From the IMG/VR virus record IMGVR_UViG_3300045974_000806, positions 32,001 through 96,000 of that record: 64,000 nt of DNA; one strand, 5' to 3'. Below are positions 112-64,000 of the stretch, piece after piece (position 1 is the stretch's first letter; every line of letters begins with the position of its first letter). The notes below the pieces were generated by a model. The model ran no database searches and was not told where the DNA came from. It worked only from the letters and a program-made list of their open reading frames with translations. Source of the stretch: a virus. The translations under genes and the position numbers were made by a program.

Positions 112-515
112 GCGGCCCGTGGCTCCCTCCGTTGCCGTTGTCTTACGTGCCGCCCGCCACCCCGGACGGCCCCAGCAAGAGCGCGCCCGGGCAGAAGAAA
201 CGGAAGAACTACGGGCCGGAGAGTGAGATGTGGGACGCGCTGAAGGGAACGCGCGTCCACATCCGCCTGCTGGACGGTGACCTTTGCTGGGGCGTCCTGG
301 CCTGGGTGGACGTGTTCACCATTGCCGTGGACCTTGACTCGTTCCTGGCGGGGAAGCGCCTCGACTACGCGGCAAGCCGTGTCAACCCACCGCGCCGGAG
401 GATGATCTACAAGCACGCCATCTCCGACGTGGGCGAGTCCCGCTCCCAGGTTCCGGAAGAGGACCCGGAAGGCCGGCACACCATTCCCCTGGACTCGGAC
501 GTGCGCCGGCCATGA
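108..515 (+). CDS. Hfq-like (Sm-fold) RNA-binding protein
   Basis: VHIRLLDGDLCWGVLAWVDVFTIAV (Sm1-like) and MIYKHAISDV, matching the Hfq Sm2 signature MVYKHAISTV. Confidence 0.75.
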   Translation: MSGPWLPPLPLSYVPPATPDGPSKSAPGQKKRKNYGPESEMWDALKGTRVHIRLLDGDLCWGVLAWVDVFTIAVDLDSFLAGKRLDYAASRVNPPRRRMIYKHAISDVGESRSQVPEEDPEGRHTIPLDSDVRRP

Positions 516-1126
516 GCGCGCTGGCCTTCACCCTGGTGGAGGATTGGAACGTCTACCTGATGCAGACGTTCCACGTTCACCAGATGCGCGCCCAGGGGCG
601 CTACATCGGGACCCGCCGGCCCAATGCGGCCAACGTGGCCATGATGGATGCCATGGTGGAATGGTGCCGCGGCCGGGCCATTGAGCCGCGCCAGTGGCTG
701 TTCTTCCTGTTCAAGCGCACCAACTGGCGGTTCCCCCCGAAGTGGCAAGAGGGCTACCTGATGAGCGAGGCGGCGGCAAAGAAGTTCCGGAAGCCGGCCA
801 AGTACAGCCTTGCGTTCTTCCGCCGGCGGATGGGCGCCGCGGCGGTGGTGGATGACGCCGCCTATGACCCCAACCGGGACATCACGCCGGCAACGGAAGC
901 CCTCAAGGCCCGCTACGCGGAAAGCGGGCAGCAGATGCGGTGCCTGGATGAAACGCTGGTGCGCACCGCCGGCTTCCATCCGCAGTCCCGCGTGTGCGCC
1001 GCGTGCAAGCTGTCCCAGGAATGCGCCCTGGCCCTGGAAGCCGCGGCACCGTTTGCCATCCTGGCCCTCCGTTCCGGAATAATCACCAGCAGCGAAGCTG
1101 AAAGACAGGCCGTCCTCCATGACTGA
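512..1126 (+). CDS. hypothetical protein with C-terminal Cys cluster
   Basis: ATGA-coupled ORF with phage-like codon usage; CAACKLSQEC. Confidence 0.7.
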   Translation: MSALAFTLVEDWNVYLMQTFHVHQMRAQGRYIGTRRPNAANVAMMDAMVEWCRGRAIEPRQWLFFLFKRTNWRFPPKWQEGYLMSEAAAKKFRKPAKYSLAFFRRRMGAAAVVDDAAYDPNRDITPATEALKARYAESGQQMRCLDETLVRTAGFHPQSRVCAACKLSQECALALEAAAPFAILALRSGIITSSEAERQAVLHD

Positions 1127-3930: not shown

Positions 3931-3979
3931 GCCGGGAAGTGCTTTGGCCCGGCCGGACGGCCCGGGCGCGGAGTGATGG

Positions 3980-4435
3980 ATGGACCAGACCAAGGCGGTG
4001 CGCGCCCTCGCGCGCAAGTTCCGGCGTTCCAGCGATGACGACTGGGATGGCCTGACACAGGAAGACTGGGAGCAGGAACTCCGGATTGCGTGGTGGCTGG
4101 CGGAGAAGTCCGGAAAGCCACCGGTGCTGGGCGCCTACTTCCGCGCCAGGGAATTGCAGCGCACCCGCTGGGCCGCGTTCCGGATGCGTGAAAGGGTCCT
4201 GGCGGTGCAGCACCTCCAAAAGGAGGCGGACCCGCTGACGGACCCCGCCCAACACACGTCGGCTTGTATCCGGAATGCCCACAGCCTACTGTCTCCGGAA
4301 CTGTGGGACGTGATGAACTGCATGGGCGCTGGGATGTCCACACCTGAAGTGGCGGCGGAGTTCGGTTGGACCCGCGCCACAGCAGGCCGGCGCATCCAAG
4401 CGGCCCGGGAGCAGGCCCACCACATCCTGAAGTAG
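3980..4435 (+). CDS. phage sigma-factor-like protein (ECF-sized)
   Basis: EDWEQELRIAWW (region 2-like) and GMSTPEVAAEFGWTRATAGRRIQAAR (region 4 HTH). Confidence 0.65.
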   Translation: MDQTKAVRALARKFRRSSDDDWDGLTQEDWEQELRIAWWLAEKSGKPPVLGAYFRARELQRTRWAAFRMRERVLAVQHLQKEADPLTDPAQHTSACIRNAHSLLSPELWDVMNCMGAGMSTPEVAAEFGWTRATAGRRIQAAREQAHHILK

Positions 4436-4444
4436 GAGCGGACC

Positions 4445-5464
4445 ATGCCGGTGCAGATCAAGCGCGACGAACGGACGGACGAATCCCTGGTGACGGACCA
4501 ACCCTGTTACGGGGAGATGTTCGCCGCGGATGACCCGGAGTGCCGGCACAACTGCGCCGCGCGGGACCTGTGCATGGACCGGACCCTGCGCGCCACCATT
4601 CCGGAACGCATGGGCCTCAAGCAGGTCCCCAACGTGCCGGCCAGCTACACCGCCCAGCGCATTGCCCTGGTGCTGGATTCGACGGAGCAGACCGCCCAGG
4701 CCCTGGTGGACCTGCGCCGCGGGAAGACCCCGGATCTTGCGCTGGGCATCACCACCCCAGAAGACGACGACACCGCGGCGGACATTGATGCCGTGGTTGA
4801 CATGGTGTCCACCATGCAGGCACAACCGCCTGCCATTCCGGAACATCCGGAACCCGCACCCAAGGAGACGGCGATGAAGAAGCCGGAGAAGAAGAAGGCC
4901 GCCGCGAAGGTGGCAAAGAAGCCGGCGGCAAAGAAGGCCGCCCCCAAGAAGACCCCCGCCCCCAAGAAGGCCAAAGTGAAGACGGCCAAGGCCATCAAGG
5001 GTGAGGCGGACGAAGCGTCCCTGGGCGCCTGGACGCGTGAGCGCGCGCGTTCCGCCTGGGTGCGCGGACTGCCCCCTGGCGCCGCGTTTGAGCGTGAGTT
5101 CCACGGCAAGGTCTACACCCTCAAGGTGGACCTGACAGACCGCCGCTACCTGCTGAACGGCAAGCCCTTCCCCACCGTCTACGCGGCCACCGCCGCGGTG
5201 GTGGGCAAGGCCGAGTCCGCCACGGCAGACGGCGGGACCCGCACCATGCCGGCGTGGTCCTCCCAGCGGTTCTGGGCTCCCAAGAGCAAGGCCAAGGGCA
5301 AGGCCGCCGGCAAGAAGGCCGCGCCCGTCAAGAAGGCCAAGGGCAAGGCCGTCAAGGTCAAGCCGGTGAAGGCGCCCCAGGTTCCGGAAGCCCCCAAGGC
5401 GCCGGCCCTGCCCCCGCCCATCACCAAGCCTTCCGCGGTTCCGGAACTGGCCCTGGCCGGCTGA
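4445..5464 (+). CDS. putative DNA-binding protein: Cys cluster, Lys/Ala/Pro histone-like tracts, DUF2924-like domain
   Basis: CYGEMF..C...C.....C; KKPAAKKAAPKK tracts; LPPGAAFEREFHGKVYTLKV...YLLNGKPFPTV...WSSQRFW. Confidence 0.6.
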   Translation: MPVQIKRDERTDESLVTDQPCYGEMFAADDPECRHNCAARDLCMDRTLRATIPERMGLKQVPNVPASYTAQRIALVLDSTEQTAQALVDLRRGKTPDLALGITTPEDDDTAADIDAVVDMVSTMQAQPPAIPEHPEPAPKETAMKKPEKKKAAAKVAKKPAAKKAAPKKTPAPKKAKVKTAKAIKGEADEASLGAWTRERARSAWVRGLPPGAAFEREFHGKVYTLKVDLTDRRYLLNGKPFPTVYAATAAVVGKAESATADGGTRTMPAWSSQRFWAPKSKAKGKAAGKKAAPVKKAKGKAVKVKPVKAPQVPEAPKAPALPPPITKPSAVPELALAG

Positions 5465-20279: not shown

Positions 20280-20621
20280 ATGACCACCACCTCCAAGTTC
20301 GTCAAGCATGACGCCGGCAAGAACCTGCTGGGATGCCTGCCACCGCGGGCGTTGATGTCCATTGGCCGCGTGCTCACCCTGGGCGCGGCCAAGTACAGCC
20401 GCGATAACTGGCACAAGGTCCGCGAACGGTCCCGCTATTACGACGCCCTGTTGCGGCATCTGTTCGCGTGGTGGGCCGGCGAGGACAAGGACCCGGAGTC
20501 CGGGGAAAGCCACCTTGCCCACGCCGGCTGCTGCCTGATGTTCCTGCTGGAATTGGAGGAGGTGGGCTTGGCGGAGGATGACCGCCCGCACTTCCGGAAC
20601 GACAAGCGGGTGAAGCCATGA
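20280..20621 (+). CDS. dATP/dGTP diphosphohydrolase-like protein (DUF5664 family)
   Basis: KHDAGK, GAAKY..DNW, YDALLRHL, DPESGESHLAHA. Confidence 0.82.
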   Translation: MTTTSKFVKHDAGKNLLGCLPPRALMSIGRVLTLGAAKYSRDNWHKVRERSRYYDALLRHLFAWWAGEDKDPESGESHLAHAGCCLMFLLELEEVGLAEDDRPHFRNDKRVKP

Positions 20622-20917
20622 GTTATTGGTCTGGCGACGAGGACGAGGAAGCGACGGTGGACATCTTCAAGGGCGTCACCGTCCAGCGTGAGACGGAGAA
20701 GGCTGTCCTTGTCACGCTTCCGGAGTTCGGCGGTGACAAGGACGTGCAGGTGTGGGTCCTCAAGTCCGTCATCACCGACGACTCGGAGGTGCATGACGTG
20801 GAGTGCTACAACGCCAACGGCCCAGGCAAGCTGGTGGTGAAGGGCTGGTGGACGGAGAAGGCCCTGGACAGCCACAAGAAGGCCAAGGCCATCCGCGCCA
20901 AGGGGAGGCCGGCATGA
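20618..20917 (+). CDS. hypothetical protein
   Basis: ATGA-coupled; ETEKAVLV...WVLKSVI. Confidence 0.6.
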   Translation: MSYWSGDEDEEATVDIFKGVTVQRETEKAVLVTLPEFGGDKDVQVWVLKSVITDDSEVHDVECYNANGPGKLVVKGWWTEKALDSHKKAKAIRAKGRPA

Positions 20918-21035
20918 CGCGCCCGTGGAGGCCCTGGGGAATCCGCACGCACCCGTTCATCCGGTGGCTGTGGTTCGTGTTCATGGGCGTGCTGGGACTG
21001 GCCACGGGCGTGTTGCTTGACGCCCTGTTCCGGAG

Positions 21036-21680
21036 GTGGCCGTGAGTTCAACAAACAGGGGCGCCACGCGCCAGGAACTGGACTACTACCGCACGGACCC
21101 GGCGGAGATCGCCGTGTTCCTGCGGGAATGGTTCAACGACGTGCCCAGCGCGCGTGAGTTGCTGACCACGGGCACCGTGCTGGACCCATGCGCCGGCGGG
21201 AACGTCAAGCCCGTGCAGTGGGAATACAAGAAGGGCGAGGTGGCCACCATCCAGCCGTCCACGATGTCCTATCCGGAGGCCATTGCGGCGGTGACGGGCA
21301 ACGTGGTGGTGACCAATGACGTGCGCCCGGACTCGCCGGCCATGATGCACCATGACTTCCTGACGGGGGACCTGGGCCTGTCAAAGCAGCCGGAGGTGAT
21401 CATCACCAACCCACCGTTCAGCATTGCCCAGCAGGTGATTGAGAAGTCCCTGACCATGGTCCCCGTGGGCGGGCTGGTGGTGATGCTGCTGCGCTTGAAC
21501 TTCTTTGGGAGTGACAAGCGGTTCCCGTTCTTCCAGGGGAAGATGCCCCAACGCGCCTACGTGCATCACCGGCGCATGGGCTTCACGCCCGACGGGAAGA
21601 CGGACTCCATTGAGTACATGCACGCGGTGTGGCACCGCGCGCGCGTTCCCAGCCCCGCCACCACCCTGCGCGTCATTTGA
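21036..21680 (+). CDS. DNA amino-methyltransferase (N6A/N4C type)
   Basis: VLDPCAG (SAM binding) and IITNPPF (catalytic). Confidence 0.85.
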   Translation: MAVSSTNRGATRQELDYYRTDPAEIAVFLREWFNDVPSARELLTTGTVLDPCAGGNVKPVQWEYKKGEVATIQPSTMSYPEAIAAVTGNVVVTNDVRPDSPAMMHHDFLTGDLGLSKQPEVIITNPPFSIAQQVIEKSLTMVPVGGLVVMLLRLNFFGSDKRFPFFQGKMPQRAYVHHRRMGFTPDGKTDSIEYMHAVWHRARVPSPATTLRVI

Positions 21681-22351
21681 GGCAACCATGAAAGAGACAA
21701 AGACGGATGACCTCGCGGCCCCTGGTGGCCGGCTCACCACCGACGAGGAAGCGCGCGGATGGCTGCTGGAATTGATCACCACCACGCGTGAGGCCCGGGC
21801 CGCATGCGACGGTGCAAGCAGCGCCGCGGACATGCGCCGGCTGCACAGCCGCTTTCTGGTGAAGCACGGCGCGGCCCTGGGCGCGCTGATGACCTGCTAC
21901 CGGTGCGGCCTGCTGAGTGACGTTGGCTACCATGAGATGCGCAAGGAAGTGCTGGACACCCTGACGCCCACCGTCATCACGGTGGTGCCTTTCACCGGAG
22001 GAAAACATGGTTGAACCGAAGAACGAGATCCCCCTGGACGCAATGCAGTTCAAGGACCCGCCGGAACTGACCGCCGGCAAGGTCCCTCCCATGGTGGGCG
22101 AGGGTATCAACGCGGTGATGCGCGTCCTGCCCAAGGTGCGCTCCCCCCTCCCCCAGGGGCTGTCCGATTCGGACATGATTGGCGTCCTTGAACGCCGCTC
22201 CCAGGTGGTGCAGGAACTGGCGTTTGCCCGCGGCATGGTTGAGGGCATGCTGTTGGCCGCGGCCGGCTACGGGTCCATCACCAAGGACCAGTTCCGTGAG
22301 CAGATGACCGTGCTACACACGGTGCTGGCCCAGCGCCCCCCGGAGTGATGC

Positions 22352-22591
22352 ATGCGCACCCACGCCACAAAGAACCAGACGTTGGTGGATGAGTTTGGGG
22401 AGCGCCTGCTGTCCGCGCTTCTCCGTCGTCACATGACCCGGGCGGACCTGTGCGTGAAGTCCGGGCTCAAGTACGACTCCGTGACCAAGCTGGCCCGCGG
22501 GACCCGCGCTCCCAACCTGCGCACCGTCGCATCCATCGCCACCGCCCTGGGCGTGACGGTGGCCCAGTTGCTTGAGGAGATGTCCACGTGA
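22352..22591 (+). CDS. XRE-family HTH regulator
   Basis: MTRADL..KSGL....VTKLARGTRAPNLRTVASIATALGV. Confidence 0.85.
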   Translation: MRTHATKNQTLVDEFGERLLSALLRRHMTRADLCVKSGLKYDSVTKLARGTRAPNLRTVASIATALGVTVAQLLEEMST

Positions 22592-22823
22592 CGTGTGAAC
22601 ACTGTGGGGAGGTGCCAGCGGAGGGTTCCGGAATCCCGCACCAGAACGTGTGCCCGCGCTTCACGTGCGCGCTGTGCGGTGCCAAGTTCGCGGTGTTTCC
22701 GGAACCCACCAAGAAGCTGTTTGGCACCTCCCCCCGGTGCGTGGCGTGCAAGAACGCGCCGGCCCCCAAAGGGGCGGCGTGGCGTGATAGTGTTTGACGT
22801 CCGTTGGCTTTGGTGGGGTCTGA

Positions 22824-23255: not shown

Positions 23256-23915
23256 GAGGGTGTCACCATGGACAAGATCATGAACAAGTTCTCCGTTTCC
23301 GACATGGCGTGGGTTCCCAAGGCTCTGAAGGCCATCGACCTGGGCGAGGGTGTTTGCGTGTCCGTCACCGGCCCGGACGCCAAGCTGATCATGCAGCACG
23401 TGCAGGACATCACCGCACGCCTGCCCATCATGAGCCTGTTCAACGCCGTGCAGCGTTTTGTCCCTGCCGTCGGCGCGGTCCACATTGACCCGCTGGTGGT
23501 GGTGCCCGTCCTGGCGTCCCTGGGCGCGCTGGGCGCCGCGGCCGGCTCCGTGGCGTTCGTCGCCGGCGTGGGCGTGGCGCACGGCATGAAGCTGGCGTTC
23601 ACCTATGACATGGGCAGCCTGCTGGACCCCATGGATGACGCCCTGAGCATCACGCTGACCAAGTGAGCGGCCCGCACCTTCCCACCGTCGCACGCTGGCA
23701 CCTCCCGGGCTCTTCCCGCCGGGAGGCGCTGTGCGGCGTCACGCTGCTGCCCTCCGCCAGCGTGCTGATGCCGGAACTGGTGGCTCACATCCACCACCCG
23801 GACTTTGACCTGCCCCTGTGCCCCCTGTGCCAGGAAGCCCAGGCCCCCACCCCACCCGGAACCTGATCACTTCCGGAACCCAAACCGGTGCAGATCCGCC
23901 TACTTGCGGAAAGTG

Positions 23916-23955
23916 TGCTTTTTGTCTTGTCTTCCGGAACCCACGGGCGCAACGT
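23916..23955 (+). promoter_or_regulatory. class-1 (early-type) sigma70 promoter, copy A
   Basis: TGCTTTTTGTC-TTGTCT-17 nt starting TCCGGAA-CAACGT. Confidence 0.7.
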
Positions 23956-23988
23956 CCCATCCCGCAAGACCAACCACGGAGCCACCCC

Positions 23989-25756: not shown

Positions 25757-25809
25757 AGTGACGCCGGAGGCCCAGCGGTGGCATGATTCGCGTGGAAAGG
25801 GGAAGACCC

Positions 25810-26421: not shown

Positions 26422-26448
26422 GACGTTTTGGCCCCTGCCCACTACCTA
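26418..26448 (+). promoter_or_regulatory. class-2 promoter-like motif (copy 2)
   Basis: GTGAGACGTTTTGGCCCCTGCCCACTACCTA upstream of dcd. Confidence 0.7.
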
Positions 26449-26469
26449 TGGGAAAGGAGGCACAAAACC

Positions 26470-28069: not shown

Positions 28070-28395
28070 TGCCGGCGGCCCCGCACCTGCGTTCCAGCAC
28101 GGCCAGGCAACTGCGCACGTCATGGCAGTTGCTGGCCCTGATAGCGGAGCGCCCGCGGACGGAGACGGAACTGGCCAAGCACCTGGGGGTGCCCCGCACC
28201 CTGGTGTGGCGCCACGTCCAGGCCATGCGCCAAGCCGGCATGCCCTTGGAAGCCGTGCCGGACCCCGCCTGGGGAGGAAAGCGCCGGCTGTGGCGCCTGT
28301 CCGGAATCATTCCCTGGCGGGTTCCGGAACGCGGCCTGGACCCGGAGATCAAGCCTGATCCGGCCGAGTGCTTTTTGTCTTGCCTTCCGGAATGA
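28069..28395 (+). CDS. winged HTH (HTH_11-like) protein
   Basis: ELAKHLGVPRTLVWRHVQAMRQAG. Confidence 0.7.
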   Translation: MPAAPHLRSSTARQLRTSWQLLALIAERPRTETELAKHLGVPRTLVWRHVQAMRQAGMPLEAVPDPAWGGKRRLWRLSGIIPWRVPERGLDPEIKPDPAECFLSCLPE

Positions 28396-36000: not shown

Positions 36001-38498
36001 CACTGACCCCGGATGAGATGGCCCTGCTGGGGAAGCTGAACGCGGTGGAGCGCCTGAACGCCGCGGAGGCCCAGCGCCTGCGCATGTTCCGCCGCGGTGA
36101 GTCCCCATGCCTGTGCGCGTGCAATGGGCCGTCCTTTGCTGGCACGTGCGGCTGTGTCTGCCATGCGGCGGAGGTGGGTCATGGTTGACATCCCACTCCG
36201 GGTGTTCACGCTGTCCTTTGAGGAACAGGTGCTGCTGGGCAAGGACCGGAACCGCGCGAAGCTGACGGAAGAGGAATACCGGGTTCTTCGCGCATCACGG
36301 AACCGGGCATGGCAGGTGCTTGAGAAGGAGCGCGCGGCCAAGCGCAAGTGGGGCGTGTGCCGGGAGTGCCACGCCAGGGTGCGCCTGCTTGATTCCGGAA
36401 AGGCCCGCATCCATGAGGTGCGGGTCTTCACGGAGTTTGCAACCACCGTGCGCCGGAGCATGGCCCGGGCCATGACGTGCGCCGGTAGCTACCGCTCCAC
36501 GCTTCCGGACACCGCGGCCATCCCCAGCATAAGCGTGACGCGCTTGTTTGAGGAGTTGAGTCTCATGCGCTCCACGCGGCGTGGCTTGGTGAACACGGGT
36601 GAATGGTTCCCAGCCCGGAAAGACCTTGAGGCCGCCCTGCGCGCCGCGGGGTATGAGGTGGAGACGTGAGGACATCCTGCGCGGTCCCTGTGTGGCGTTG
36701 GGAGGGCAACGGCCGGGCCTGGACGGACCCCAACACGCGTGTGTTGGTCCGGACGTACACCGCGGCCCCAACCCTGTTGCTGACGGTTGACGTTTGGTGG
36801 CTCCGCATGCGCGGATTCACCGTTGTGTGGAGGTGGGCATGTTGAGCGCGCACGCAAAGCTGCTGGACCGGATGGAGAAGCTGCAAGCCGCCTACGCGGT
36901 CCTGAAGAAACCTCCGGAAGGGCTGTGGCTGACCTGGGATGACGCCCAGGCCATCCTGGCGTTCATGGCCGGCGTTCCCACCACCACCATCTGCGACCAG
37001 TGCCAGCGCGTCCAGATGCTGATGCCCGCCCCTGGTGCCCGCACCGGGATTGTCCCTGTCCAGGCCGGCGGAGGTGGCATTGCCCTGGCCGTGGTGGAGC
37101 AGGACCCGCACGCCCACCTCCGCGGCTGCGGCGTGGCGGCCAACGGCTACCACGCACCGGCGGACGGTGGAGGCCATTGCGCGCTGTGCGGGACCATTGG
37201 CCCCTGGCACGCGACTGGGGGCAACACGTGAGCCCCCTGGACACCCTGGTGGACGCCCTGGTGGCATCCGTGCGCGCCCAGGCAGTGGCGGACTGGGCAA
37301 CCGCCTACGGGAATGCGGAGCCGGACCCCAAGGCGCCCGGCGTGGTGGTAACCGCCCGGAAGGCCCTGGTGGACTACGTGCGGGGTTTGGAGGCCCAGGT
37401 GGATACCTGGGACCGGCTGGCCCTGGAAGCGGACGTGGAGGCCGCCCAGGCCCCTTCCGTGGACCCCGCGGACGTGCAGCGGGTGGTGGCGCGGGCGGAG
37501 CGGCTGGCCCAGAACGCCCAGGTGAGCGGCATGGTGGACCACGCGGTGGCCATGGCATCCGCTATGGCCGGCCACGCGGGCGTGCGGTCCCAGGAATGCT
37601 GGGAGTGCGGCATCCTGCCCGGGATCTTGGACACGGTGGAGGTATGGGTGCGGGCGTTCCTGGCACCGGACACCACCACCGCCCAGGTGCAGTTCCACCT
37701 GGGTTGCTACAAGGGCTGCCAGGAATGCCACGTGGTGGAGGGGCACCTTCTCTGGTGCTCACAACGGAGGGAAGCATGAGCCCAGGACAGATGGCCGCGG
37801 AGTGTGCCCGCGTGCTGCAAGGCGGCATGGAGCGCGTGACGTTCGTGGTGGACCGCAAGCCCACGCGTTCCGGAAGGGTGCGCCTCACGCCCAAGTCCGG
37901 ACCCTGGGGTGAGGTGGCGTGCGTCAACGCGGATGGCGCCACGGTGGCGTGGTTCAAGGCCCTGGACGTCCTGGCCTGGATGGGCGCCAACGGCATGGTC
38001 AAGATCACCGTGGTGCCCAAGGCGCCGGGCGTGCCGCCCGCGGCCGTGAGGAAGGTTCCGGAACATGCCTAAGAGCCCCATCCCCGGCGTGACCGTCTAC
38101 GCGCATCCCAAGCACCGCAAGGAGGTGGCCGCGGAAGTCCGGAAGGGCAACGTGCCCGCGCGCCACGCCTGGGCCGCCGGCCCGGACATCACCACGCTGA
38201 CGCCGGCGGAGATGGCCGCGGTCACCTACGCGCTGTTGCAGGCCCAGGGGGAGCGGCTGGCCGCGGAATGGTGGGGCACGTTCCTGGCCGGCATCCGCCG
38301 CGGGCTTGAGGTGACCACCGCGGCCCGCGTGGCCCTGGAACGCTGGGACATCGGATGATCCGGGTCATCTACACAACCAGCCCGGACGAGGGCGCGGAGG
38401 CGGACGGTTCCCAATGGGTGCGCGCGTCCATGGCCTGGACGGCCGTCAAGCTGTGCTTCCTGGCCGGCGTGATGCTTGGCGCCCTGATCCGGAGTGTA

Positions 38499-38538
38499 TG
38501 CTTTTTGTATTGACTTCCGGAATGGCCGGCTCTAGCGT
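38499..38538 (+). promoter_or_regulatory. class-1 promoter, copy C
   Basis: TGCTTTTTGTA-TTGACT-17 nt starting TCCGGAA-TAGCGT. Confidence 0.78.
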
Positions 38539-54000: not shown

Positions 54001-56785
54001 GGGCAAGCGCACCGTGGACCGCTGGTATCCCATCCACCGGTGGAAAGAGGACCGCGTGTGGAGCACCATCGCGGAGTCCGGCGTGCCGTTCCACAAGGCG
54101 TACAGCCTGGGCATGCGCCGGCTGTCCTGTGCCTTCTGCGTGTTTGCGCAGAAGGAAGACTTGATGATTGCCGCCAAGCACAACCCGGACCTGTTCCAGT
54201 CCTATCTGGACTTGGAGCAGCGCGTGGGGTCCGGCTTCACGGCGGACCTGTCCCTGGCGGACGTGGCGGACGAGATCAAGCGCCGGCGCGCGGAGGGCAT
54301 GGAACTCGACGAGACGGCCAAGTGGGTGAAGAAGGCCCTGGCCCAGTGGGAAGAGGTTCCGGAAGCACTCATCAAGGCGGAGTTGGAGAAGGCGGAGCCC
54401 GACTTCCACGCCGCCATCCTGACCGCGGCGTTTGCCCGCCTGGGCGCAGACGCCCCGGTGGTGGGCGTCACCATCGACTGGAAGACCACGGGCGCCTGCG
54501 TGCATCTCGACGACCACGCGGACAGCCACCACGTCCTGTGGATGCCGTATCCGGAAGCGTACAACGCGTCCATGACCGTGGCGCAATTCGCCATGGACCA
54601 CGGCCTGTCCCTGGAAGAGAACAACGCGCCCGCGCCCCTTCCGGAACTCGACGAGGACGCAATGGACAAGGCCGCGACGGATGCGGATGACCTGTCCAAG
54701 TCCGGCCCGTTCATTGGTCCCCAGGGTGGGCTCTGGGCAGACCCCAAGCACACCATCCACTGGGACCCGGCCCTCCACGGACCCGTGGCCGCCAACCGCA
54801 AGGTGGTGGTGCATCACGCCGGCGCGGAACTGCAAGGCAAGGCCAAGTTCGGCCACGGCTACCACGCGGACCTGCATTACAAGGGGCAGAAGTACACCGT
54901 GAAGTTCAACCACGTGGACGGCAAGTTCTCCGGCGAGGTTCACCTCCCGGGCGGGCAGGTCCACCACGTGTCCAGCGCAAACCAAGCGGCGGACGCGGTG
55001 GTGCTCCACAGCGCCGGCCTGGACCACACGCTGAACAGCACGGAAGTCCGGAAGCGCGGGCTGGCCTATTCCGCGGACAGGTTGCTCAAGCCCACCAAGG
55101 ACGTGCCGGCCGCCGCGGAGCCGGAGGCCACGCCGGAACCCGCCAAGGTGGAAGCGCCGGCGCACAAGCCGCTGCCCCTGCCCCCTGGCGTTCCGGAAAC
55201 CACCATCCCGCCCCCGGGCACGCACCTGGGCACCATCCACCAAGGGGAACTGGACAACACCGTGGCGCCGGCACCTGCGCCCGCGGCGGAGCCGTCCCTG
55301 TTCGCCATGGACCCGCCCGCCCCACCGCCCCCGCCGCCCCCGCCGGCCAAGCCCGCGGACCCGCGGCGCACCGCGCTGGGCGGAATCCTGGGCAAGAAGG
55401 CCCCGCTCTACATGGCCGCCACCAAGGGGACCATCCATGAGAAGCAGGCCGCCAAGTACGTGCTGGTGGAGGCGGAAAGCCTCATCCCCAGCCACCAGCC
55501 GCAGAAGGGCTTTGCGGAGCATCCGGCCTACCCCAAGGACGTCCAGACCCGCCCCTATGACCGCGACGAGGGGGACCAGATGAAGGTCCACGGCGCGGCC
55601 GGCGCCATGAACCCGGAGATCGTGTTCACGCCCAGCGTGGACGCCATGCAGGGTCCGCCTGTCATCACGGAGGACGGCGTGGTGTTGGGCGGCAACGGCC
55701 GGACCATGGCCCTGCAACTCCACTACGCGTCGAACGACCCCAAGGCCCAGGAAACCCGGGACTTCCTGGCGGAGAACGCCGGCACCTACGGCTTCACGGA
55801 GGCGGACGTCCGCTCCATGAAGAACCCGGTGGTGGTGCGGCAGGTGGAGACGCCCGACAAGAGCCAGCGCGCGCTGGCCCTGTTGGTCCACCGGTACAAC
55901 GAGTCATCCAGCCAGGAACTGCAACCCCTGGCGGAGAGTGTGGCGGACGCCCGGCGCCTGGACGACACCACCATGTCCGCCCTCACGGCCATTCCGGAGG
56001 ACGGCACCCTCAAGGAGTTCCTGGGCTCCGCGGACTCCCGCCCGTTCGTTTCCGCGCTCCGGAACACGGGCATCATCAACCAGCGCAACGCCACCAAGTA
56101 CGTGGAGGGCGACGGGCTGTTGAACACCGCCGGCAAGAACCTTGCGGAGAGCATCCTGACCGCGGCCGTGCTTCCGGACGTCAAGCTGCTGGAAGACATT
56201 GACGGGCAGGTCCGGAACTCCCTCACGCGCGCGGCACCCTACGTCCTGGCCGCGGCGGCGGGGTCTGACCCGGACTGGGACCTGCGCCCGGCCCTCAAGG
56301 CAGCAGCGCGGGACCTCATCACCATCCGCTCCAAGCACCGGGCGGAGGTGGAGGCCGGCACCGTGCAGTCCGTGGCCAAGCGGGATGCAGAAGGCAAGCC
56401 GGTGAAGGTCAACGGCCAGACGGTCATGGTCAACAAGGAACCCACGGTGGACGAGTTCCTGAGCGGCGGTGCCCAGGGCGCGCTCATTCCGGAGTCCCAC
56501 GCGGTGGACGGCGTGAAGCACGGGGAGGACGTGCTGCGCCTGCTGTTTGAACACGGGGACCGGCCCACCGTGCTGGCCCGGGTGATGTCCGGCTTCCTGG
56601 CGGAGGCCCGGAAGAACCCCAAGGGCCAGGGCGGCATGTTCGGGTCCCTGTCCGCCGGCGACCCCGGGGACACGCTGCGCAAGCTGGCCGCGGCGGTGGA
56701 CAAGAGCCAGGACAGCCCGGAGGACCCGCGCCTGTGGCTGGACGCGGCCATTGACGCCCTGGAATCCGGAATCCTTACGACCTGA
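51023..56785 (+). CDS. about 1920-aa polyvalent protein: kinase-like, DarA_C-like, PAPS-reductase-like and DdrB-ParB-like domains separated by GPFIG tags
   Basis: LGKGDDG..VVK..HD..LFDIG; YGMSLRPPGLGALP; SSAGKDS, HCDLG, FCTSDHK, GLRAQES, RLSCAFC; LIPSH...QTRPY...PPVI..DGVVLGGNGRTMAL. Start placed at ATG 51023. Confidence 0.8.
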   Translation: MKLRLEADPAELQTRGDVLLTSLSHAVEPHAPALAESLRKAIPERPPVVSKHRALRELTRDVQGLYADTVERMLAEVGQALDRRVEEMTTGSGDGSLMKGGPFIGPQGGLWADPKHTVHWDPDVHGSTHHPVAWAVPIHAKISGEENHVAMYHVTHKGNGNVMVSRHKDGQYGQTMPVESLKHFRNDLSAVVDLPPSGNPDIDAVTSGKAKFLGKGDDGMAFHVGDKVVKVSSTVPYHPDNPGHRSPEGAADMLRAQVDVGNHLADLGVPCIQRSEFIKHGDKGFQIKPWVRIPEKFTRAQLDKIQGAVIAMHEAGYAMHDQIQPGLDDKGEPVLFDIGKAAPLDKEGTQGRKWAIEDDVSHLQRLYEKSGVDFINRNTPQAKQDFDKVVAMSVPKKDGKRGGAGLYADLLTMQGKKLLRATEGTDEHIGHVVNFVEALRDVRDNHGPIHPKLLDEARKIIPEDWHDMLDGLDKEKAAKAGYADADDLHKSGPFIGPNGGLWADAKHTIHWDPAKHGPGTPVRYGMSLRPPGLGALPSGVKWDLVARGKHPASSFPGRPDLPVSEHHLHGEVELPGHLDPERAAAMDMVRISPAPVEAPPARAAKPEQLGLFSMPAKPPEPEDKPSSRRLLAIVDNDPALTQEQKLAPTAEVMKAILAKPASDPGQWKLPAGARFDPWEPKAVPEDAEWEHPDFGSGTGAAPWQQGDDWKPDFHKYDVLLVNSSAGKDSQAMLSHVVAQADAAGFPREKIVVVHCDLGRVEWEGTKELAIQQAQHYGLRVEVVQRTQNDLLEQIEERHGDLTQRQEDVGKLVAAGIRTWADLAAMDPATVQKHLGEGKGASKWEAQHRAEELVDKAQKKLEAAQEWEPLHNAHQAALAQHAEDMTAYEARVAANPKDKKNKPKAPKKPKGKPVFAADPVDFGKAIAWPSSDARFCTSDHKRAEVKKLMTRLADEHREKNGPKSKPRILNALGLRAQESDSREAMPSFEREEETGKRTVDRWYPIHRWKEDRVWSTIAESGVPFHKAYSLGMRRLSCAFCVFAQKEDLMIAAKHNPDLFQSYLDLEQRVGSGFTADLSLADVADEIKRRRAEGMELDETAKWVKKALAQWEEVPEALIKAELEKAEPDFHAAILTAAFARLGADAPVVGVTIDWKTTGACVHLDDHADSHHVLWMPYPEAYNASMTVAQFAMDHGLSLEENNAPAPLPELDEDAMDKAATDADDLSKSGPFIGPQGGLWADPKHTIHWDPALHGPVAANRKVVVHHAGAELQGKAKFGHGYHADLHYKGQKYTVKFNHVDGKFSGEVHLPGGQVHHVSSANQAADAVVLHSAGLDHTLNSTEVRKRGLAYSADRLLKPTKDVPAAAEPEATPEPAKVEAPAHKPLPLPPGVPETTIPPPGTHLGTIHQGELDNTVAPAPAPAAEPSLFAMDPPAPPPPPPPPAKPADPRRTALGGILGKKAPLYMAATKGTIHEKQAAKYVLVEAESLIPSHQPQKGFAEHPAYPKDVQTRPYDRDEGDQMKVHGAAGAMNPEIVFTPSVDAMQGPPVITEDGVVLGGNGRTMALQLHYASNDPKAQETRDFLAENAGTYGFTEADVRSMKNPVVVRQVETPDKSQRALALLVHRYNESSSQELQPLAESVADARRLDDTTMSALTAIPEDGTLKEFLGSADSRPFVSALRNTGIINQRNATKYVEGDGLLNTAGKNLAESILTAAVLPDVKLLEDIDGQVRNSLTRAAPYVLAAAAGSDPDWDLRPALKAAARDLITIRSKHRAEVEAGTVQSVAKRDAEGKPVKVNGQTVMVNKEPTVDEFLSGGAQGALIPESHAVDGVKHGEDVLRLLFEHGDRPTVLARVMSGFLAEARKNPKGQGGMFGSLSAGDPGDTLRKLAAAVDKSQDSPEDPRLWLDAAIDALESGILTT

Positions 56786-56796
56786 TCCGGAACCTT

Positions 56797-56837
56797 TGCT
56801 TTTTGTATTGCCTTCCGGAACCGGAGGAACTAAGTGT
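56797..56837 (+). promoter_or_regulatory. class-1 promoter, copy D
   Basis: TGCTTTTTGTA-TTGCCT-17 nt starting TCCGGAA-TAAGTG. Confidence 0.7.
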
Positions 56838-58963: not shown

Positions 58964-61900
58964 ATGCCCTTGCTCACCGCGCGCCTCATCCAAGAGATCA
59001 AAGAGATCATCCGGAAGCACCACACGGCGTTCGTGGCCAACGCGTTTGGCAAGGACGTGCTCCCCCCGGAAGCGGTGGAGAAGCTGCGCGCGGCCGGCCT
59101 CATCAGCCAGACACAGGGCAGCAGCCTGGACGACGCCTACCTCTACGGGCAGGTGATGGCCCAGGTGGAGAAGCCGGAGGTGGCCGAGTGGTCCGCCGCC
59201 CAGGTCCGGTCCTACGCGGCCCAGAACCCCGTCCCCCTCACCCAGGTGGAGCGTGAAGCGGTGAAGACGGCCCGGCTCACCGGCGCGGAGTATTGCCAGG
59301 GCCTGGGCAACGTCATTGAGAAGCAGACCGGCCAGTTGCTGATCGAGGCGGACCACGCGCTGCGGGAAGACCTGCAGGGGAAGATTGCGGACGCCACTGC
59401 GGTGAACATTGCCGCGCGCGGCACGGTGAAGGCGCTCAAGACGGACCTGGGCTGGGCCACGCAGGACTGGGCCAGGAACTTGGACCGCATTGCCATCACG
59501 GAGAAGCAGAACGCGATGCAGCAGGGTGTGGCGGATGGCATCCGGAAGCGCGTGGGGGAGGAAGCCCGCGTGTCCATCCGGTGCATGCCGGACGCCTGTG
59601 GCGCGTGCCGGGCGTTCAGCATTGGCCCGGACGGCGCCCCGCGCATCTACCGCCTGAGCCAGTTGGGGCCTCCGGGCTCCAACGTCCACCGCAAGCAGAA
59701 CGCGTGGGTGGCGTGCGTGGGCGCGGTGCATCCGCACTGCCATCCCGCAGGGACCGTGGTTCAGACGCGGCGGGGGCGCATCCCGATTGAGACGGTGGTG
59801 CCGGGGGACATGGTGCTGACGCACCGGGGCCGGTGGATGCCTGTGAGCCACACGTGGGCGTCCCGGTATTCCGGAATCATGTTGCGCGTGAGGACGGAAA
59901 GCGCGGTGGTTGACGTGACTCCGGAGCATCCGTTGTTCCGCTCAAACGGAACCACCGCTTCCGCGCAAAACCTCCAACAGGGTGACAACCTTTTGGACCT
60001 CCGCTTGGACGGAGAACCCGCGCCGTCGGTCCAAGGTGATGCGGACCACGGACCATCCGCGCCGCTTGAGCGCGCGCATCTTGCGCGCATCCTGTTTGGC
60101 CTTTCTCCCGCTGGCGTGCCAGTTGCCGCCGTCAACTTCCACGGCGAGCTTTTCCTGTGGGAAGGCAATGTCCACCAGAAACGTGCCCACAATGAAGCCT
60201 GGGAGCCCAGCCATTCCGACGGCGCAAAGCGCCTCATGGATGAGGCGTTCACCGGGACTTTTGAGTTGACCGCTTTGGGCTTGAAGCACCTTGAGGATGT
60301 GCCCACGGGAGTTCCGTTTGCCACGTCGGGCTGCATGCGCAGCGTTGGCGCGGGCACTACGTTCCTCCGGGCTGGACCGGGCGTTGCGGAGGCGTTGGGC
60401 TTCCCCCATCCCGCGGACGACGTGTCCAGCACGCTCCAAGCGGAGCACCACGGTCCCACGGGCCACCCCCAGCCGCCGGGCAATCTCCTGTACCGGGAGC
60501 AGTTGGTTGAGGTGCAAGTCTACAAGGACCGCTTCATCAATTTCGCGCCGGTACACCATGAGCCCTCCGTGGCTTTCAGTGCCCCGACGGTGCGGCAAGC
60601 TGCGTCCATTGTCAATGTCAGTTCAAACCAGTTTGATGGGTTGGTGTTCAACCTGACCGTTCCGGAAGATCACAGTTACACGGCCAACGGGCTGGCCTCG
60701 CACAACTGCCAGTGCCAGTTGGTCCGCTTGCCCGTGGGCTGGGGATACAACGCGGAAGGGGAGATGGAGCCCGGCGGCCGGTTCGGCGTGGAGGTTCCGG
60801 AAGACGAGGAAGAGGCGGAGAAGGCGTTCCGGATGGAAGTGGAGCACCGGGAGGCCATGCAGAAGGGCGGCACCCTGGACTTCCAGGGCATGCCCATCCG
60901 GATCGAACAGGACGCGGGGGAGGTGCGCCACTGGCGGGACCGTCACGGCGAGTCCGGCAGCACCACCATGCAACACGCCTACGGGGAGATTGTGGGCACC
61001 AAGGGCGCCGACGGTGACCCGGTGGACGTGTTCCTGGGCATGAACCCCAACGCGTCCCACGTCTACGTTGTCCACCAGCGGAAGAAGCGTGCGGACGGGA
61101 CGTTTGGTGGCTTTGACGAGGACAAGGCGTTCCTGGGCTTCTCTTCTCCGGAAGAGGCCAAGGCCGCCTACCTGTTGCACTACGACAACCCGGAGTTCTT
61201 TGGCGGGATGTCCGCGGTGGGCCTGGAAGACTTCCGCGCGCGCGTAGGCGCCCCCGGCCCCCTGGTGGGGGAACCGGTCCACACTCCGGAACTGACCTTC
61301 ACCGTGGCGCTTCCGGAATCCGCGGCGGACATGGCCAAGGCCGCCGTCCGCCCGCCGGCCGTTCCGGACATGACGTTCACCCTGGGCAAGGCGTTTGGCC
61401 AAGCCGCGGCCGGTCACAAGTACATCCGGCGCACGTACACCAAGGGCCATTGGGTCTATGAGTACGCGGAGCAGCACGGCGGGCACGTGAGTAGCCACGC
61501 CACGGACCCGGACAAGGTGATGCTCAAAGTGGAGCCCCACCACGCCAACGCCCTGGCGGCGCTGGCGGAGATGCACGGCATCCATCCGGAACTGGTGCAT
61601 GGGAGCACGCACGTCATGCTGCCCCTCACCCACGCCCAGGCTGATTCCATCCACCACGGTGAGACGGGCACGCCCATCCCGGCCGCCATGCTGCCCACGC
61701 CGGCCCTGGCCACCGTGCTGCCCTTCCCCACGCCCGCTCAGGTGGCCCCCGTGGCTCCGGCACCCCTGGCCCCGACCGTGGCGCCTGCGCCGGCTCAGGT
61801 GGCTCCGCGGGCACGCCCGGCCCCGGCCCAGCAGATGGGCCTCTTTGACACCATGCCCGCGGCCCAGGCCGTCACGCAGTCCCCGGTGACCCATCCGGCC

Positions 61901-64000
61901 CCCACGCCCCTGGCGGTGGCCGCCATTCCGGAGAAGAAGTGGGGCGTGGTGGGTTCCACCGCGTTCCGGAATTGGTTCGGGGACTGGACGGTGGGCCAAG
62001 GGTCCAAGGTGGTGAACGCGGACAACACGCCGGCGGAGCAGCACGGAGCCAAGCCGGCAACCATGTTCCACGGCACCGCGGTGGGCGGGTTCACGGAGTT
62101 CCGGAAGGACAAGGACAAGGGCACCAACATCTTTGGGCACGGCTTCTACTTCACGGCGGACAAGGGCATTGCCAAGTCCTACACGGAGAAGGATGCCAAT
62201 GAGGCCAAGGCCGCCGCCACGGGTTTCTTGGACAAGGAAGGCGAGCCCATCACGCACCTGACCAAGAAGCAGGCCGCGGAACTGGCGGAGAAGGCCGCGG
62301 GCAACGCCAACCCCAACTGGGACTACAACATCCTGCACGCGGTGAAGGCCGCCGCGGAGCCGGACGGCCGCGTCAATGTGGCCACCCTGTTGAAGGAGTT
62401 CTGGAACCCCACCGGAGTGGAGACGGACGGCGGCTACAAGCAGCCCAAGCGTGAAGTGATGCCCATGGGCGGCGTGCGCTTGGTGGGCGGCATCCAGGGC
62501 CTCTTTGGGAAGAACCGCGCCGGTGAATACCACGTCAAGCCGGTCATTCCGGAGTCCCAGGTCTTTGAGGTGTACCTCAACATCCGGAACCCGGTGGACA
62601 TGGACAAGGCCATGACCCGCGCGGACTTTGCGGAGTACGCGGCGTTCACGCACCGGCGTGCGTTGGAGCGTCTGAACAAGGAGTTGGAGCAGGACAAGGC
62701 CCGCGTGGAGACGAAGCGCGGGGAGATGGCGTCCGCCAAGGTGAAGCTGGCCGCGCTGGCCCCCACGCCCCCGCAGCCTACGGAGATGCGGGTTCCGGAA
62801 GGCAAGCGGAAGGCCGTCCCCATGCCGGTGGAGGAGTGGACCGGTGAGATGCGCCGGGCGATTGATGACCCCACGCATGGACAGCACGCAATGGCCCAGG
62901 CGTTTGCTTCCTGGGAGCACGCAAAGAACGAACGGGAGTTCCTGTCCCAGGCCGCGGCCGGGGAGGGCTATGACGGGTTCAACAACGCGGTGGCGCATTC
63001 CGTCCGCACCCAGGCCCGCATTGATGCCGTCCGGCGTGAGGTTCCCGGGGAGTTCCTGCACGGCGTGCAGATGGATGACGTGGCCCCGCGTGAGCACCGC
63101 CTCTCAGACCAAAGTGAGAGCGCCGCCAGCTATGATGACTTTGTGGCGGTGAAGCGCAGCATCAAGGGGGACCGCACCAAGCCGGAGATGGTCACCTACG
63201 GCGGCACGTCCCGCGCCCGGGCCGGCATCCTCTACGTGGGGGAGCAGAAGCCGGGCGCCATCACCTGGGGTGAGATGCATTGGTTGATGTCCAACGGGCA
63301 TGAGGCGTCCAGCCCGCGCGCGGACTTCGACGAGTGGGCGCGCGCCACGGGAAAGGATGGCGTTCACCACACCGGCGGATGGAACATTGGCACCCACGCG
63401 CATGACGTGTGGATTGCGTTTGAACCCAACCAGATCAAGTCCTCCACGGCCAACACCACGTTTGACCCGGCCTCCAATGACATGGAGAAGGCCGGCCCTT
63501 ACGTTGGCCCGCACGGCGGGCTTTGGGCGGACCCCAAGCACACCATCCATTGGTCCGCGGTCCCGCACTGGGCGCAGAAGATGGCCGCCAGCCACGCCGC
63601 GGAGATCAAGCCACACCCCACGGACCCGCACAGCCTGGAAGTGGCCGTGCCGGTGAAGCACGCTCCGGAACTGGGCTACCAGCAGGGCCAGCACGCGGTG
63701 CCCCACAACGTGAAGCTGTCCGCGGACCTCAAGCAGGCCACGTTGCAGGTCCCCGCCCTCCCGGTGGCGCCGGACGTTCAGGCGCTTGGACGTCCAGACG
63801 TCCAGACGCCCGCCCCGGCTCCCACGCCCCCGCCTGCCCCTGTGGCACCGCCCCCGCCGCCCGCGCCCCTGGCCGGCGTGGCGCCCACGGGCAAGCCCAA
63901 GCGCAAGGGCATCACCGTGGCCCAGTTGGATATGTTTGCGCCCGCTCCGGCTGCGACGGCTCCCGTCGCACCGGTGGTGCAGGCGCCGGCAACCCCTGCT
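58964..64000 (+). CDS. MuF-like head protein with intein, then InPase-like and ADP-ribosyltransferase-like domains (runs off window)
   Basis: Translated by hand: no stop from ATG 58964 to the window end. RIAITE, CGAC, HPH|CQC; YGEIVGTKGADGDPVDVF...FDEDKAFLGF; FRNWFGDW, FHGT, GFYFT, YLNIRNP, FEPNQIKS. Confidence 0.88.
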   Translation, partial: MPLLTARLIQEIKEIIRKHHTAFVANAFGKDVLPPEAVEKLRAAGLISQTQGSSLDDAYLYGQVMAQVEKPEVAEWSAAQVRSYAAQNPVPLTQVEREAVKTARLTGAEYCQGLGNVIEKQTGQLLIEADHALREDLQGKIADATAVNIAARGTVKALKTDLGWATQDWARNLDRIAITEKQNAMQQGVADGIRKRVGEEARVSIRCMPDACGACRAFSIGPDGAPRIYRLSQLGPPGSNVHRKQNAWVACVGAVHPHCHPAGTVVQTRRGRIPIETVVPGDMVLTHRGRWMPVSHTWASRYSGIMLRVRTESAVVDVTPEHPLFRSNGTTASAQNLQQGDNLLDLRLDGEPAPSVQGDADHGPSAPLERAHLARILFGLSPAGVPVAAVNFHGELFLWEGNVHQKRAHNEAWEPSHSDGAKRLMDEAFTGTFELTALGLKHLEDVPTGVPFATSGCMRSVGAGTTFLRAGPGVAEALGFPHPADDVSSTLQAEHHGPTGHPQPPGNLLYREQLVEVQVYKDRFINFAPVHHEPSVAFSAPTVRQAASIVNVSSNQFDGLVFNLTVPEDHSYTANGLASHNCQCQLVRLPVGWGYNAEGEMEPGGRFGVEVPEDEEEAEKAFRMEVEHREAMQKGGTLDFQGMPIRIEQDAGEVRHWRDRHGESGSTTMQHAYGEIVGTKGADGDPVDVFLGMNPNASHVYVVHQRKKRADGTFGGFDEDKAFLGFSSPEEAKAAYLLHYDNPEFFGGMSAVGLEDFRARVGAPGPLVGEPVHTPELTFTVALPESAADMAKAAVRPPAVPDMTFTLGKAFGQAAAGHKYIRRTYTKGHWVYEYAEQHGGHVSSHATDPDKVMLKVEPHHANALAALAEMHGIHPELVHGSTHVMLPLTHAQADSIHHGETGTPIPAAMLPTPALATVLPFPTPAQVAPVAPAPLAPTVAPAPAQVAPRARPAPAQQMGLFDTMPAAQAVTQSPVTHPAPTPLAVAAIPEKKWGVVGSTAFRNWFGDWTVGQGSKVVNADNTPAEQHGAKPATMFHGTAVGGFTEFRKDKDKGTNIFGHGFYFTADKGIAKSYTEKDANEAKAAATGFLDKEGEPITHLTKKQAAELAEKAAGNANPNWDYNILHAVKAAAEPDGRVNVATLLKEFWNPTGVETDGGYKQPKREVMPMGGVRLVGGIQGLFGKNRAGEYHVKPVIPESQVFEVYLNIRNPVDMDKAMTRADFAEYAAFTHRRALERLNKELEQDKARVETKRGEMASAKVKLAALAPTPPQPTEMRVPEGKRKAVPMPVEEWTGEMRRAIDDPTHGQHAMAQAFASWEHAKNEREFLSQAAAGEGYDGFNNAVAHSVRTQARIDAVRREVPGEFLHGVQMDDVAPREHRLSDQSESAASYDDFVAVKRSIKGDRTKPEMVTYGGTSRARAGILYVGEQKPGAITWGEMHWLMSNGHEASSPRADFDEWARATGKDGVHHTGGWNIGTHAHDVWIAFEPNQIKSSTANTTFDPASNDMEKAGPYVGPHGGLWADPKHTIHWSAVPHWAQKMAASHAAEIKPHPTDPHSLEVAVPVKHAPELGYQQGQHAVPHNVKLSADLKQATLQVPALPVAPDVQALGRPDVQTPAPAPTPPPAPVAPPPPPAPLAGVAPTGKPKRKGITVAQLDMFAPAPAATAPVAPVVQAPATPA
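59942..60559 (-). CDS. HTH + Vsr/DUF559 (EDxHD-like) endonuclease encoded antisense inside the intein
   Basis: EIARRLGVARGTV (HTH); KSPGE, VDIAFPQEKLAVEVDGGNWH, QDARK..LKRRGWSVVRI; GGAGG upstream of ATG 60559. Confidence 0.85.
   Translation of the reverse strand: MVYRREIDEAVLVDLHLNQLLPVQEIARRLGVARGTVVLRLERAGHVVRGMGEAQRLRNARSSPEERSARANAAHAARRGKRNSRGHILKVLQAQSGQLKSPGERLIHEALCAVGMAGLPGFIVGTFLVDIAFPQEKLAVEVDGGNWHASGRKAKQDARKMRALKRRGWSVVRITLDRRRGFSVQAEVQKVVTLLEVLRGSGGSV
60587..60615 (-). promoter_or_regulatory. candidate promoter for the antisense endonuclease
   Basis: Minus strand TTGACA (60615-60610), 17 nt, CACCGT (60592-60587), about 28 nt before the ATG. Confidence 0.55.

Follow-up and report, generated by a model that had tools for sequence, protein, structure and literature searches.

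Several kinds of short DNA words are dispersed through the genomes that carry them. Chi sites and DNA uptake sequences are read by RecBCD/AddAB or by the competence machinery, while the stoperators of Cluster A mycobacteriophages are 13-bp repressor sites, about 25-35 in number, that are oriented relative to transcription. Highly iterated palindromes (HIPs) have remained unexplained in cyanobacterial chromosomes for three decades. One of them, HIP1 (GCGATCGC), is accompanied by 1-nt deviants at its outer positions, and cognate methyltransferases are described for alternate HIPs (Elhai 2015, PMC4390886). A further report describes the spacing of HIP sites as quasi-periodic and evener than random (PMC13756078). 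Here we describe the 8-bp palindrome TTCCGGAA in a 64,000-nt stretch of phage DNA (hereafter the window, meaning that whole stretch), which corresponds to bases 32001-96000 of the IMG/VR virus record IMGVR_UViG_3300045974_000806 (110,271 bp, rated complete). The word is hugely over-represented across this genome, and the excess arises at the level of DNA. In the literature, we found no paper on an iterated palindrome in a phage, nor on TTCCGGAA as a genomic repeat, bacterial metagenome-assembled genomes (MAGs) included.

An exact search of the window finds 91 perfect copies of TTCCGGAA, the first starting at 451 and the last occupying 62793-62800, compared to 0.52 on average, and never more than 3, in dinucleotide-preserving shuffles. 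The original prediction, made from the window by eye, had put the count near 90 against about 0.5 expected per 64 kb; both figures agree with ours and all of its example coordinates are correct. In the full genome, the octamer is found 155 times and its reversed control word is not found at all. With a GC content of 65-69% in the window and 67% in the genome, a word of 50% A+T is nevertheless the top-ranking 8-mer of the entire sequence. Its enrichment is about 150x, compared to 10x for the core hexamer TCCGGA (364 copies in the genome against a zero-order expectation of 37).

The information is confined to the eight positions. The base before the TCCGGA core is T in 62% of cases and the base after it is A in 65%, while the flanks outside the octamer have background composition and carry no information. 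Single-nucleotide deviants gather at positions 1 and 8, at 16-40 copies each in the genome (ATCCGGAA 26, CTCCGGAA 40, GTCCGGAA 16; TTCCGGAC 27, TTCCGGAG 25, TTCCGGAT 18), and are scarce at the six inner positions (0-8 copies each). A maximal-order Markov model expects 146 copies against the 155 observed; this null is circular and uninformative, because it conditions on sub-words that themselves carry the signal.

The copies of the window (451..62800, no strand assigned) start at 451, 785, 1072, 3000, 3230, 4599, 4836, 5382, 5439, 6261, 7906, 8679, 9023, 9686, 11019, 11532, 12098, 12256, 12500, 12980, 13360, 14310, 15130, 15886, 16809, 16869, 17341, 18766, 19709, 19783, 20592, 22626, 22697, 22977, 23871, 23932, 24653, 24915, 25979, 26393, 28322, 28385, 29046, 30260, 30393, 30592, 31204, 32188, 32674, 33694, 34051, 34785, 35077, 35941, 36393, 37868, 38056, 38515, 40319, 40363, 41397, 42092, 42802, 44263, 44367, 44719, 46497, 46993, 47886, 48036, 48696, 49117, 51016, 51147, 51572, 51610, 52404, 53070, 53107, 54357, 54639, 55191, 56813, 58913, 59869, 60660, 60795, 61311, 61964, 62099 and 62793. 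Genome-wide, each tenth of the sequence holds 13-20 copies and the mean spacing is 709 bp (1 per 711 bp). Spacing analysis over the whole genome reveals neither short-range clustering nor periodicity, with a coefficient of variation (CV) of 0.88 compared to 0.99 +- 0.08 for random placement (P = 0.07). We rejected a dispersed repeat or mobile element, of the repetitive extragenic palindrome (REP) or miniature inverted-repeat transposable element (MITE) kind: the flanks are without conservation and a longer intergenic element is common to only 4 of the 155 copies.

Genes were called heuristically by third-position GC on the + strand only, giving 98 genes over 90% of the genome; ten minus-strand candidates with antisense-like GC profiles were left out. 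In these genes TTCCGGAA is found 129 times, in all three codon phases (29 as TTC-CGG-AAn, 60 as nTT-CCG-GAA and 40 as nnT-TCC-GGA-Ann). The other 26 copies are intergenic, in 10.5% of the genome, which amounts to 1.7x the coding density. When synonymous codons are shuffled with all proteins and the codon usage of each gene left intact, 11.7 +- 3.0 copies fall in genes; a codon-order shuffle yields 1.8 +- 1.3.

The choice of codons follows the octamer closely. TTCCGGAA spells 60 of the 77 [LIVF]-P-E tripeptides and every F-R-[KN] tripeptide (29/29), and peptides compatible with the word are 2-7x above the expectation from amino-acid composition. Leu, Ile and Val codons ending in TT make up 9% elsewhere and 55 out of 55 ahead of CCG-GAA. 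Ser-Gly is written TCC-GGA in 69% of cases if the next codon begins with A and in 14% otherwise, and the third base preceding TCC-GGA is T in 68% compared to 8% elsewhere. Likewise, Phe-Arg is written TTC-CGG in 29 of 29 cases ahead of Lys or Asn and in 25 of 55 otherwise. Since codon choice is conditioned on neighbouring codons, the pressure acts on the octamer, which spans three codons, and not on the codon pair. The original prediction had placed the word in all three frames and between genes and had argued that protein sequence is insufficient to explain it. The phase counts and the codon-preserving shuffle bear this out, and the codon-context tests reject the alternative it had allowed for, namely that the enrichment would vanish under a dicodon-aware null.

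In 13 clade members, the polymerase loci hold next to no TTCCGGAA, and several of these relatives carry a hugely over-represented word of their own; for loci other than this phage (G000), G011 and G012, enrichments refer to zero-order expectations only. G011 (96.8 kb, 58.5% GC) has 66 copies of TTCTGGAA and 75 of TTCCAGAA, where 1.8 are expected, the pair being written TTCTGGAA/TTCCAGAA(A). G012 (110 kb, 58.5% GC) has 66 copies of CGTCTGGA and 63 of TCCAGACG, where 3.8 are expected, and G013 (106.8 kb) uses these same words 49 and 63 times. G015 (109 kb, 64% GC) shows a weaker, partly codon-explained excess of TCTGGA/TCCAGA (about 20 expected for each). The words of G011 and G012 run both with and against transcription, lie in every phase and stand 4-10x above synonymous-shuffle nulls. 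These asymmetric words are mixed in both orientations genome-wide, with no orientation switch.

Oriented on TCCAGA, the logos read T-TCCGGA-A in this phage, T-TCCAGA-AAA in G011 and [G/T]-TCCAGA-CG in G012. The centre of the word is thus CG here and TG/CA in the relatives, and a TCC[A/G]G core is common to the sister words in relatives of 52-67% GC. On the strength of these spellings, one word family xTC-YR-GAx appears to run through a clade of 97-110-kb myoviruses. Site density is 1.41 per kb in this phage, 1.46 in G011 and 1.17 in G012 (one per 0.7-0.85 kb), for totals of 155, 141 and 129 per roughly 100 kb. Because these totals are similar whether the word is a palindrome or not, the counting of double-stranded sites fits better than a strand-specific reading.

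The sister words are also conserved between close relatives. G012 and G013 align over 51.7 kb at 71% nucleotide identity. Conservation there reaches 38% for the word 8-mers compared to 9.7% for other 8-mers, and 47% for the core hexamers compared to a background of 15.6%. The TG or CA form is identical in both genomes in all eight aligned site pairs that were read, so that these spellings are inherited and are not sequencing artefacts of a modified cytosine. Nor do we favour the relatives' words as mere decayed TCCGGA: they are conserved, and one of their sides carries additional asymmetric information (AAA or CG). Elsewhere in the clade, by zero-order expectation, other words stand out: L254 and L255 have a dominant palindrome GCTCGAGC together with CTCGAG and GAGCTC, L256 has a word of roughly 12 nt containing CCTCAAGCTC that is present about 24 times on one strand, and L258 has TCGACG-type words.

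The same genomes are purged of many restriction-site-like palindromes. In this phage, a dozen palindromic hexamers are found at 0-3 copies compared to 20-61 expected under the synonymous-shuffle null; among them, GGGCCC, GTGCAC, CAGCTG, GGATCC, AGGCCT, AGCGCT, GTCGAC, CGATCG and TCGCGA are absent and CTGCAG is found once, where 25-61 are expected. Against this same null, TCCGGA stands at z = +34. The relatives purge lineage-specific sets of hexamers, with no GCGCGC and no CGCGCG in G015 where 117 are expected. TCCGGA itself is absent from G012 (34 expected) and G015 (36 expected), depleted in G013 (7 copies, about 33-37 expected) and neutral in G011 (36 copies, 30 expected). The zero counts in G012 and G015 look like restriction avoidance.

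A candidate protector of TCCGGA in this phage is P0121, an orphan gamma-type amino-methyltransferase of 214 amino acids (window 21036..21680, + strand). It carries motif I (VLDPCAGGN) and motif IV (NPPF, within IITNPPF) and matches phrog_799 'DNA methyltransferase' (E 2.7e-39), with no Pfam or PDB match. Six-frame searches of the phage genome detect no PF00145 (C5-methyltransferase), no PF01555 and no other methyltransferase family, leaving P0121 as the only recognisable DNA methyltransferase. P0121 may methylate TCCGGA and protect it from cleavage. Of six genomes checked, only this phage encodes it, G011-G015 being without it. The gene at 21036 had been proposed as a methyltransferase partner of the word: it does encode a DNA methyltransferase, but it cannot be the primary cause of the word, because G011-G013 lack it and yet their sister words are just as dense and, between G012 and G013, conserved.

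Among the described systems, HIP1 resembles this word in several respects. Both are 8-bp palindromes with a density of about 1 per kb that occur in every frame and also outside genes, with an abundant inner hexamer, 1-nt deviants at the outer two positions and an orphan methyltransferase in the genome. The analogy with HIP1 that the original prediction had drawn fits in density, all-frame presence and outer-position deviants (Elhai 2015, PMC4390886). The differences are that the word is another one, that it sits in a phage and not in a cellular chromosome, that relatives carry equivalent words without the enzyme, that those sister words are non-palindromic, and that the spacing is only slightly more even than random (CV 0.88 against 0.99, P = 0.07).

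With Chi sites and DNA uptake sequences, the word has in common its length class (8-10 bp), its genome-wide over-representation at the DNA level and its lineage-specific dialects. Those words, however, are asymmetric and read on one strand, and Chi is orientation-skewed, whereas the word here is a palindrome and the relatives' words show no orientation switch. Chi enrichment is also far below the 100-150x found here. We accordingly rejected a Chi-like hotspot, TTCCGGAA being palindromic and the asymmetric words of G011 and G012 lying in mixed orientation along the whole genome. The likeness to stoperators is that of a DNA-binding site (putative here) scattered through a phage genome, inside genes too; the difference is that the 155 copies here are orientation-free and saturate the synonymous opportunities. 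Finally, the purge of many 6-bp palindromes to zero, and of TCCGGA in two relatives, resembles the restriction-site avoidance of phages, with its sign reversed here for TCCGGA (10x over-represented) and TTCCGGAA (about 150x).

An explanation has to account for the near-saturation of available positions, the indifference to frame, strand and gene class, and the equal density of palindromic and asymmetric spellings. It also has to account for site conservation in close relatives with turnover between distant ones, for the TCC[A/G]G core and for the all-or-none behaviour of TCCGGA. Tentatively, we favour the reading that TTCCGGAA is a selected docking word or tag on double-stranded DNA with a putative clade-inherited reader, P0121 being secondary and permitting the palindromic spelling. 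A directional force on double-stranded DNA, indifferent to frame, gene class and strand, would keep the word in place. A putative clade-conserved factor, most likely encoded by the phage, would bind the dispersed sites, and selection would keep the number of these sites close to a set-point. Here the word would have turned into a perfect palindrome centred on CG. By virtue of that spelling, it contains the Type II restriction site TCCGGA, which is purged completely in two relatives. P0121 would methylate TCCGGA, probably at adenine, and so render the 364 sites safe.

Several observations weigh against this docking-word reading. We found no reader, nor was co-variation with the word demonstrated for any conserved protein. 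The histone H1-like protein P0122 (window 4445..5464, + strand), which the original prediction had put forward as a candidate reader, is rich in Lys, Ala and Pro and has a cluster of Cys residues at its N-terminus as well as a small globular part; it has no Pfam or PHROG family match, and its similarity to G011 and G012 extends over no more than about 89 residues, with no match in G015. Site positions in this phage coincide with those of 40-49% relatives in 3 of 56 cases (1/20, 0/11 and 2/25), where chance gives 0.2. With so few coinciding positions, sites must turn over while density is kept, and the continuity of the word family is deduced from word similarity and not from site descent. Ten low-GC IMG/VR loci (L346-L372, many of them near-duplicates of one phage type) encode 41-45% homologues of P0121 and contain no TCCGGA where about 11 are expected in total; this lends no support to TCCGGA as the target of the P0121 family. 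In addition, a 20.5-kb block of small genes without counterpart in the relatives (window about 18.8-39.3 kb) holds 31 copies of TTCCGGAA. Accessory genes thus carry the word at full genomic density, as would also be expected if the cause lay with the host or the gene pool. Saturation and conservation would equally follow from a mutational or repair drive.

The same octamer is also found in bacteria. Species-representative genomes were scanned and whole-genome counts then made, the bacterial carriers being those among the matches listed. At least three unrelated MAGs from two phyla carry TTCCGGAA genome-wide at 0.6-1.3 per kb: the Bacteroidota MAGs G006 (Bacteroidetes bacterium OH_PBB_261, 2.9 Mb, 3692 copies against 108 of the control word) and G007 (Bacteroidetes bacterium UBA1952, 2.7 Mb, 3349 against 28), and the Ruminococcus MAG G008 (uncultured Ruminococcus sp. 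SRR873597_bin.30, 2.5 Mb, 1481 against 0). G006 is the only extreme genome among the 61 of its order that were searched. With 45-54% GC, these bacteria are not the host of this phage. No P0121 homologue was found in the bacteria carrying the repeat, and a methyltransferase common to them and the phage was searched for without success. Their C5-methyltransferases are not orthologous to one another, and those of G006 and G008 adjoin MvaI/BcnI-type and Eco47II-type restriction enzymes.

Among viruses, two unrelated mid-GC IMG/VR fragments show a dispersed excess of the hexamer and the octamer: L082 (IMGVR_UViG_3300031867_001391) has 35 TCCGGA and 9 TTCCGGAA in 12.3 kb, and L094 (IMGVR_UViG_3300029579_000051) has 25 TCCGGA and 5 TTCCGGAA in 7.8 kb. 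They may be phages of repeat-bearing bacteria; L094 has no DNA match in G006-G009. Many other IMG/VR matches proved to be local tandem or protein repeats and not genome-wide words (G001, G004, L473). AGTACT and GTTTAAAC have been noted as iterated words in other phages, which we take as a lead only.

The strongest rival, unlikely on balance in our view, is a drive by methylation and repair as in Elhai's model. Here a methyltransferase acting on TCCGGA (P0121 or a host enzyme) would combine with biased mismatch repair or nicking to turn near-matches into TTCCGGAA, the word being a by-product. The density of about one site per kb in all frames, the gathering of 1-nt deviants at positions 1 and 8, the orphan P0121 and the genome-wide copies in bacterial MAGs all agree with such a drive. 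So does an open reading frame (ORF) on the minus strand (window 59942-60598), antisense to the intein-bearing giant gene, that encodes a helix-turn-helix and a Vsr-fold nuclease domain (DUF559 at 28.6 bits, above the cut-off; MTES_1575 at 35.9 bits, just below it). This ORF may be a homing endonuclease on the opposite strand, and the Vsr family itself has no match among the + strand ORFs scanned against Pfam. Nonetheless, relatives without the methyltransferase have equally dense, conserved and non-palindromic words. P0121 is moreover an amino-methyltransferase, and as the phage has no C5-methyltransferase, a Vsr-type repair of 5-methylcytosine deamination would be without a phage-encoded substrate. 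A Vsr-type signature is likewise missing: C-to-T transition neighbours of TCCGGA are not specifically depleted, as TCTGGA and TCCAGA together reach 0.88 of the null, a value that some transversion neighbours fall below. Finally, the C5-methyltransferases of the repeat-bearing bacteria are, as described above, non-orthologous and in two cases sit beside restriction enzymes.

Host mirroring, which we regard as somewhat less likely still, holds that a high-GC host carries the word to mark its own DNA, in the manner of HIPs, Chi or uptake sequences. Its phage would share the mutational and repair environment of that host or be selected to mimic it, and the relatives would mirror the words of their own hosts. 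Bacteria with a genome-wide TTCCGGAA do exist in two phyla, and L082 and L094 carry it as unrelated fragments. The accessory genes of the phage agree with this too, along with its HNH genes and intein, where the word had been noted in the original prediction and is present at genomic density. However, none of the six high-GC genomes tested (among the matches listed) is enriched, with 27-223 copies compared to 21-104 of control words, and two IMG/VR scans show no other high-GC viral contig at this level. The sharing of TCC[A/G]G-core words by relatives that range from 52 to 67% GC points to phage inheritance instead, and non-palindromic words without an orientation switch argue against a Chi-like end protection.

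Lastly, TTCCGGAA might result from coding alone, through a bias in codons or dicodons, through recurring peptide motifs or to make up for the purged palindromes. This idea can draw on CCGCGG, GCCGGC and TGGCCA standing about 2x above the synonymous-shuffle null in this heavily purged genome, and on that null exceeding the codon-order null, so that peptide content does favour the word, but it is excluded as the source of the enrichment by the 11-fold excess over the protein-preserving null in three phases, the higher intergenic density, the conditioning of codon choice over three codons and the nature of the sites as dispersed singletons and not repeats.

Genes for a tail sheath, a tube initiator and baseplate J are present, together with a replication and repair set (DnaB-like helicase, primase, family A DNA polymerase, RecA/UvsX-like, Mre11/Rad50-like, RuvC and HNH endonuclease) and genes for terminase, portal, giant polyvalent proteins and an intein. 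The replication module also encodes conserved proteins without an assigned function (window 512-1126; genome 30011-31600). Based on these tail, replication and packaging genes, the virus is a 110-kb myovirus. No cultured phage is a close relative by DNA, and DNA polymerase identity to cultured phages is below 30%. Its relatives in the protein database are uncultured and form a large clade with contigs 97-113 kb in length; by polymerase, the nearest are 67% and 58% identical (P0002, P0003). No tRNA was found in the three loci scanned, which cover genome positions 1-34000 and 94001-110271.

We also observed a set of nucleotide-pool genes (window 20280-20621 and a block at about 22000-39300). It comprises a MazZ-like dATP/dGTP diphosphohydrolase N-terminal domain (E 3.7e-32), a deoxynucleoside kinase, a dCTP-deaminase-like protein and a dUTPase, all within about 20280-39300. 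The idea of a Z-genome was discarded: a six-frame search yields no adenylosuccinate synthetase of the PurZ kind, and there is thus no evidence for a 2-aminoadenine genome, although a non-canonical base may be present. The late region (window 42111-64000 and beyond) encodes giant proteins with LPD1, ddrB-ParB, ART-PolyVal, SNF2, ResIII and inorganic pyrophosphatase domains, and a PAPS-reductase domain is also found among the late genes.

The longer intergenic element that four of the copies have in common lies on the + strand at window 23902..23940, 28355..28393, 38485..38523 and 56783..56821. In the first copy, GCTTTTTGTnTTGnC is followed by TTCCGGAA; the other three end at the palindromes starting at 28385, 38515 and 56813. 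The element consists of a T-run, a -35-like TTGnCT and the palindrome in the spacer, and TGATCCGG is found about 15 nt upstream of three of the four copies. The whole resembles a promoter preceded by the tail of a terminator. The promoter-like 23-mer has no match in IMG/VR. A small protein with a sigma-70 region 4 match is encoded at window 3980-4435.

These results allow a broader proposal, speculative and in our judgment doubtful as it stands. A clade of roughly 100-kb myoviruses would mark its own DNA with an evolving address word of 8-9 bp, xTC-YR-GAx, at one site per 0.7-0.85 kb, and a phage protein would read this word to tell phage from host DNA. The spelling would co-evolve with host restriction, with TG/CA centres where a TCCGGA-cutting enzyme is met and, in this phage, a palindrome with its own methyltransferase. 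We have not seen the combination of a selected word with restriction avoidance described before. With its occurrence in MAGs of Bacteroidota and Ruminococcus, TTCCGGAA shows that such repeats are not limited to cyanobacteria. With about 100 genes in a 110-kb phage, the set of possible reader genes is small, and the different spellings in related phages make the question of the reader approachable by comparison. Finally, the 364 copies of TCCGGA here, compared to none in two relatives, suggest that keeping a selected DNA word and avoiding restriction trade off directly against each other.

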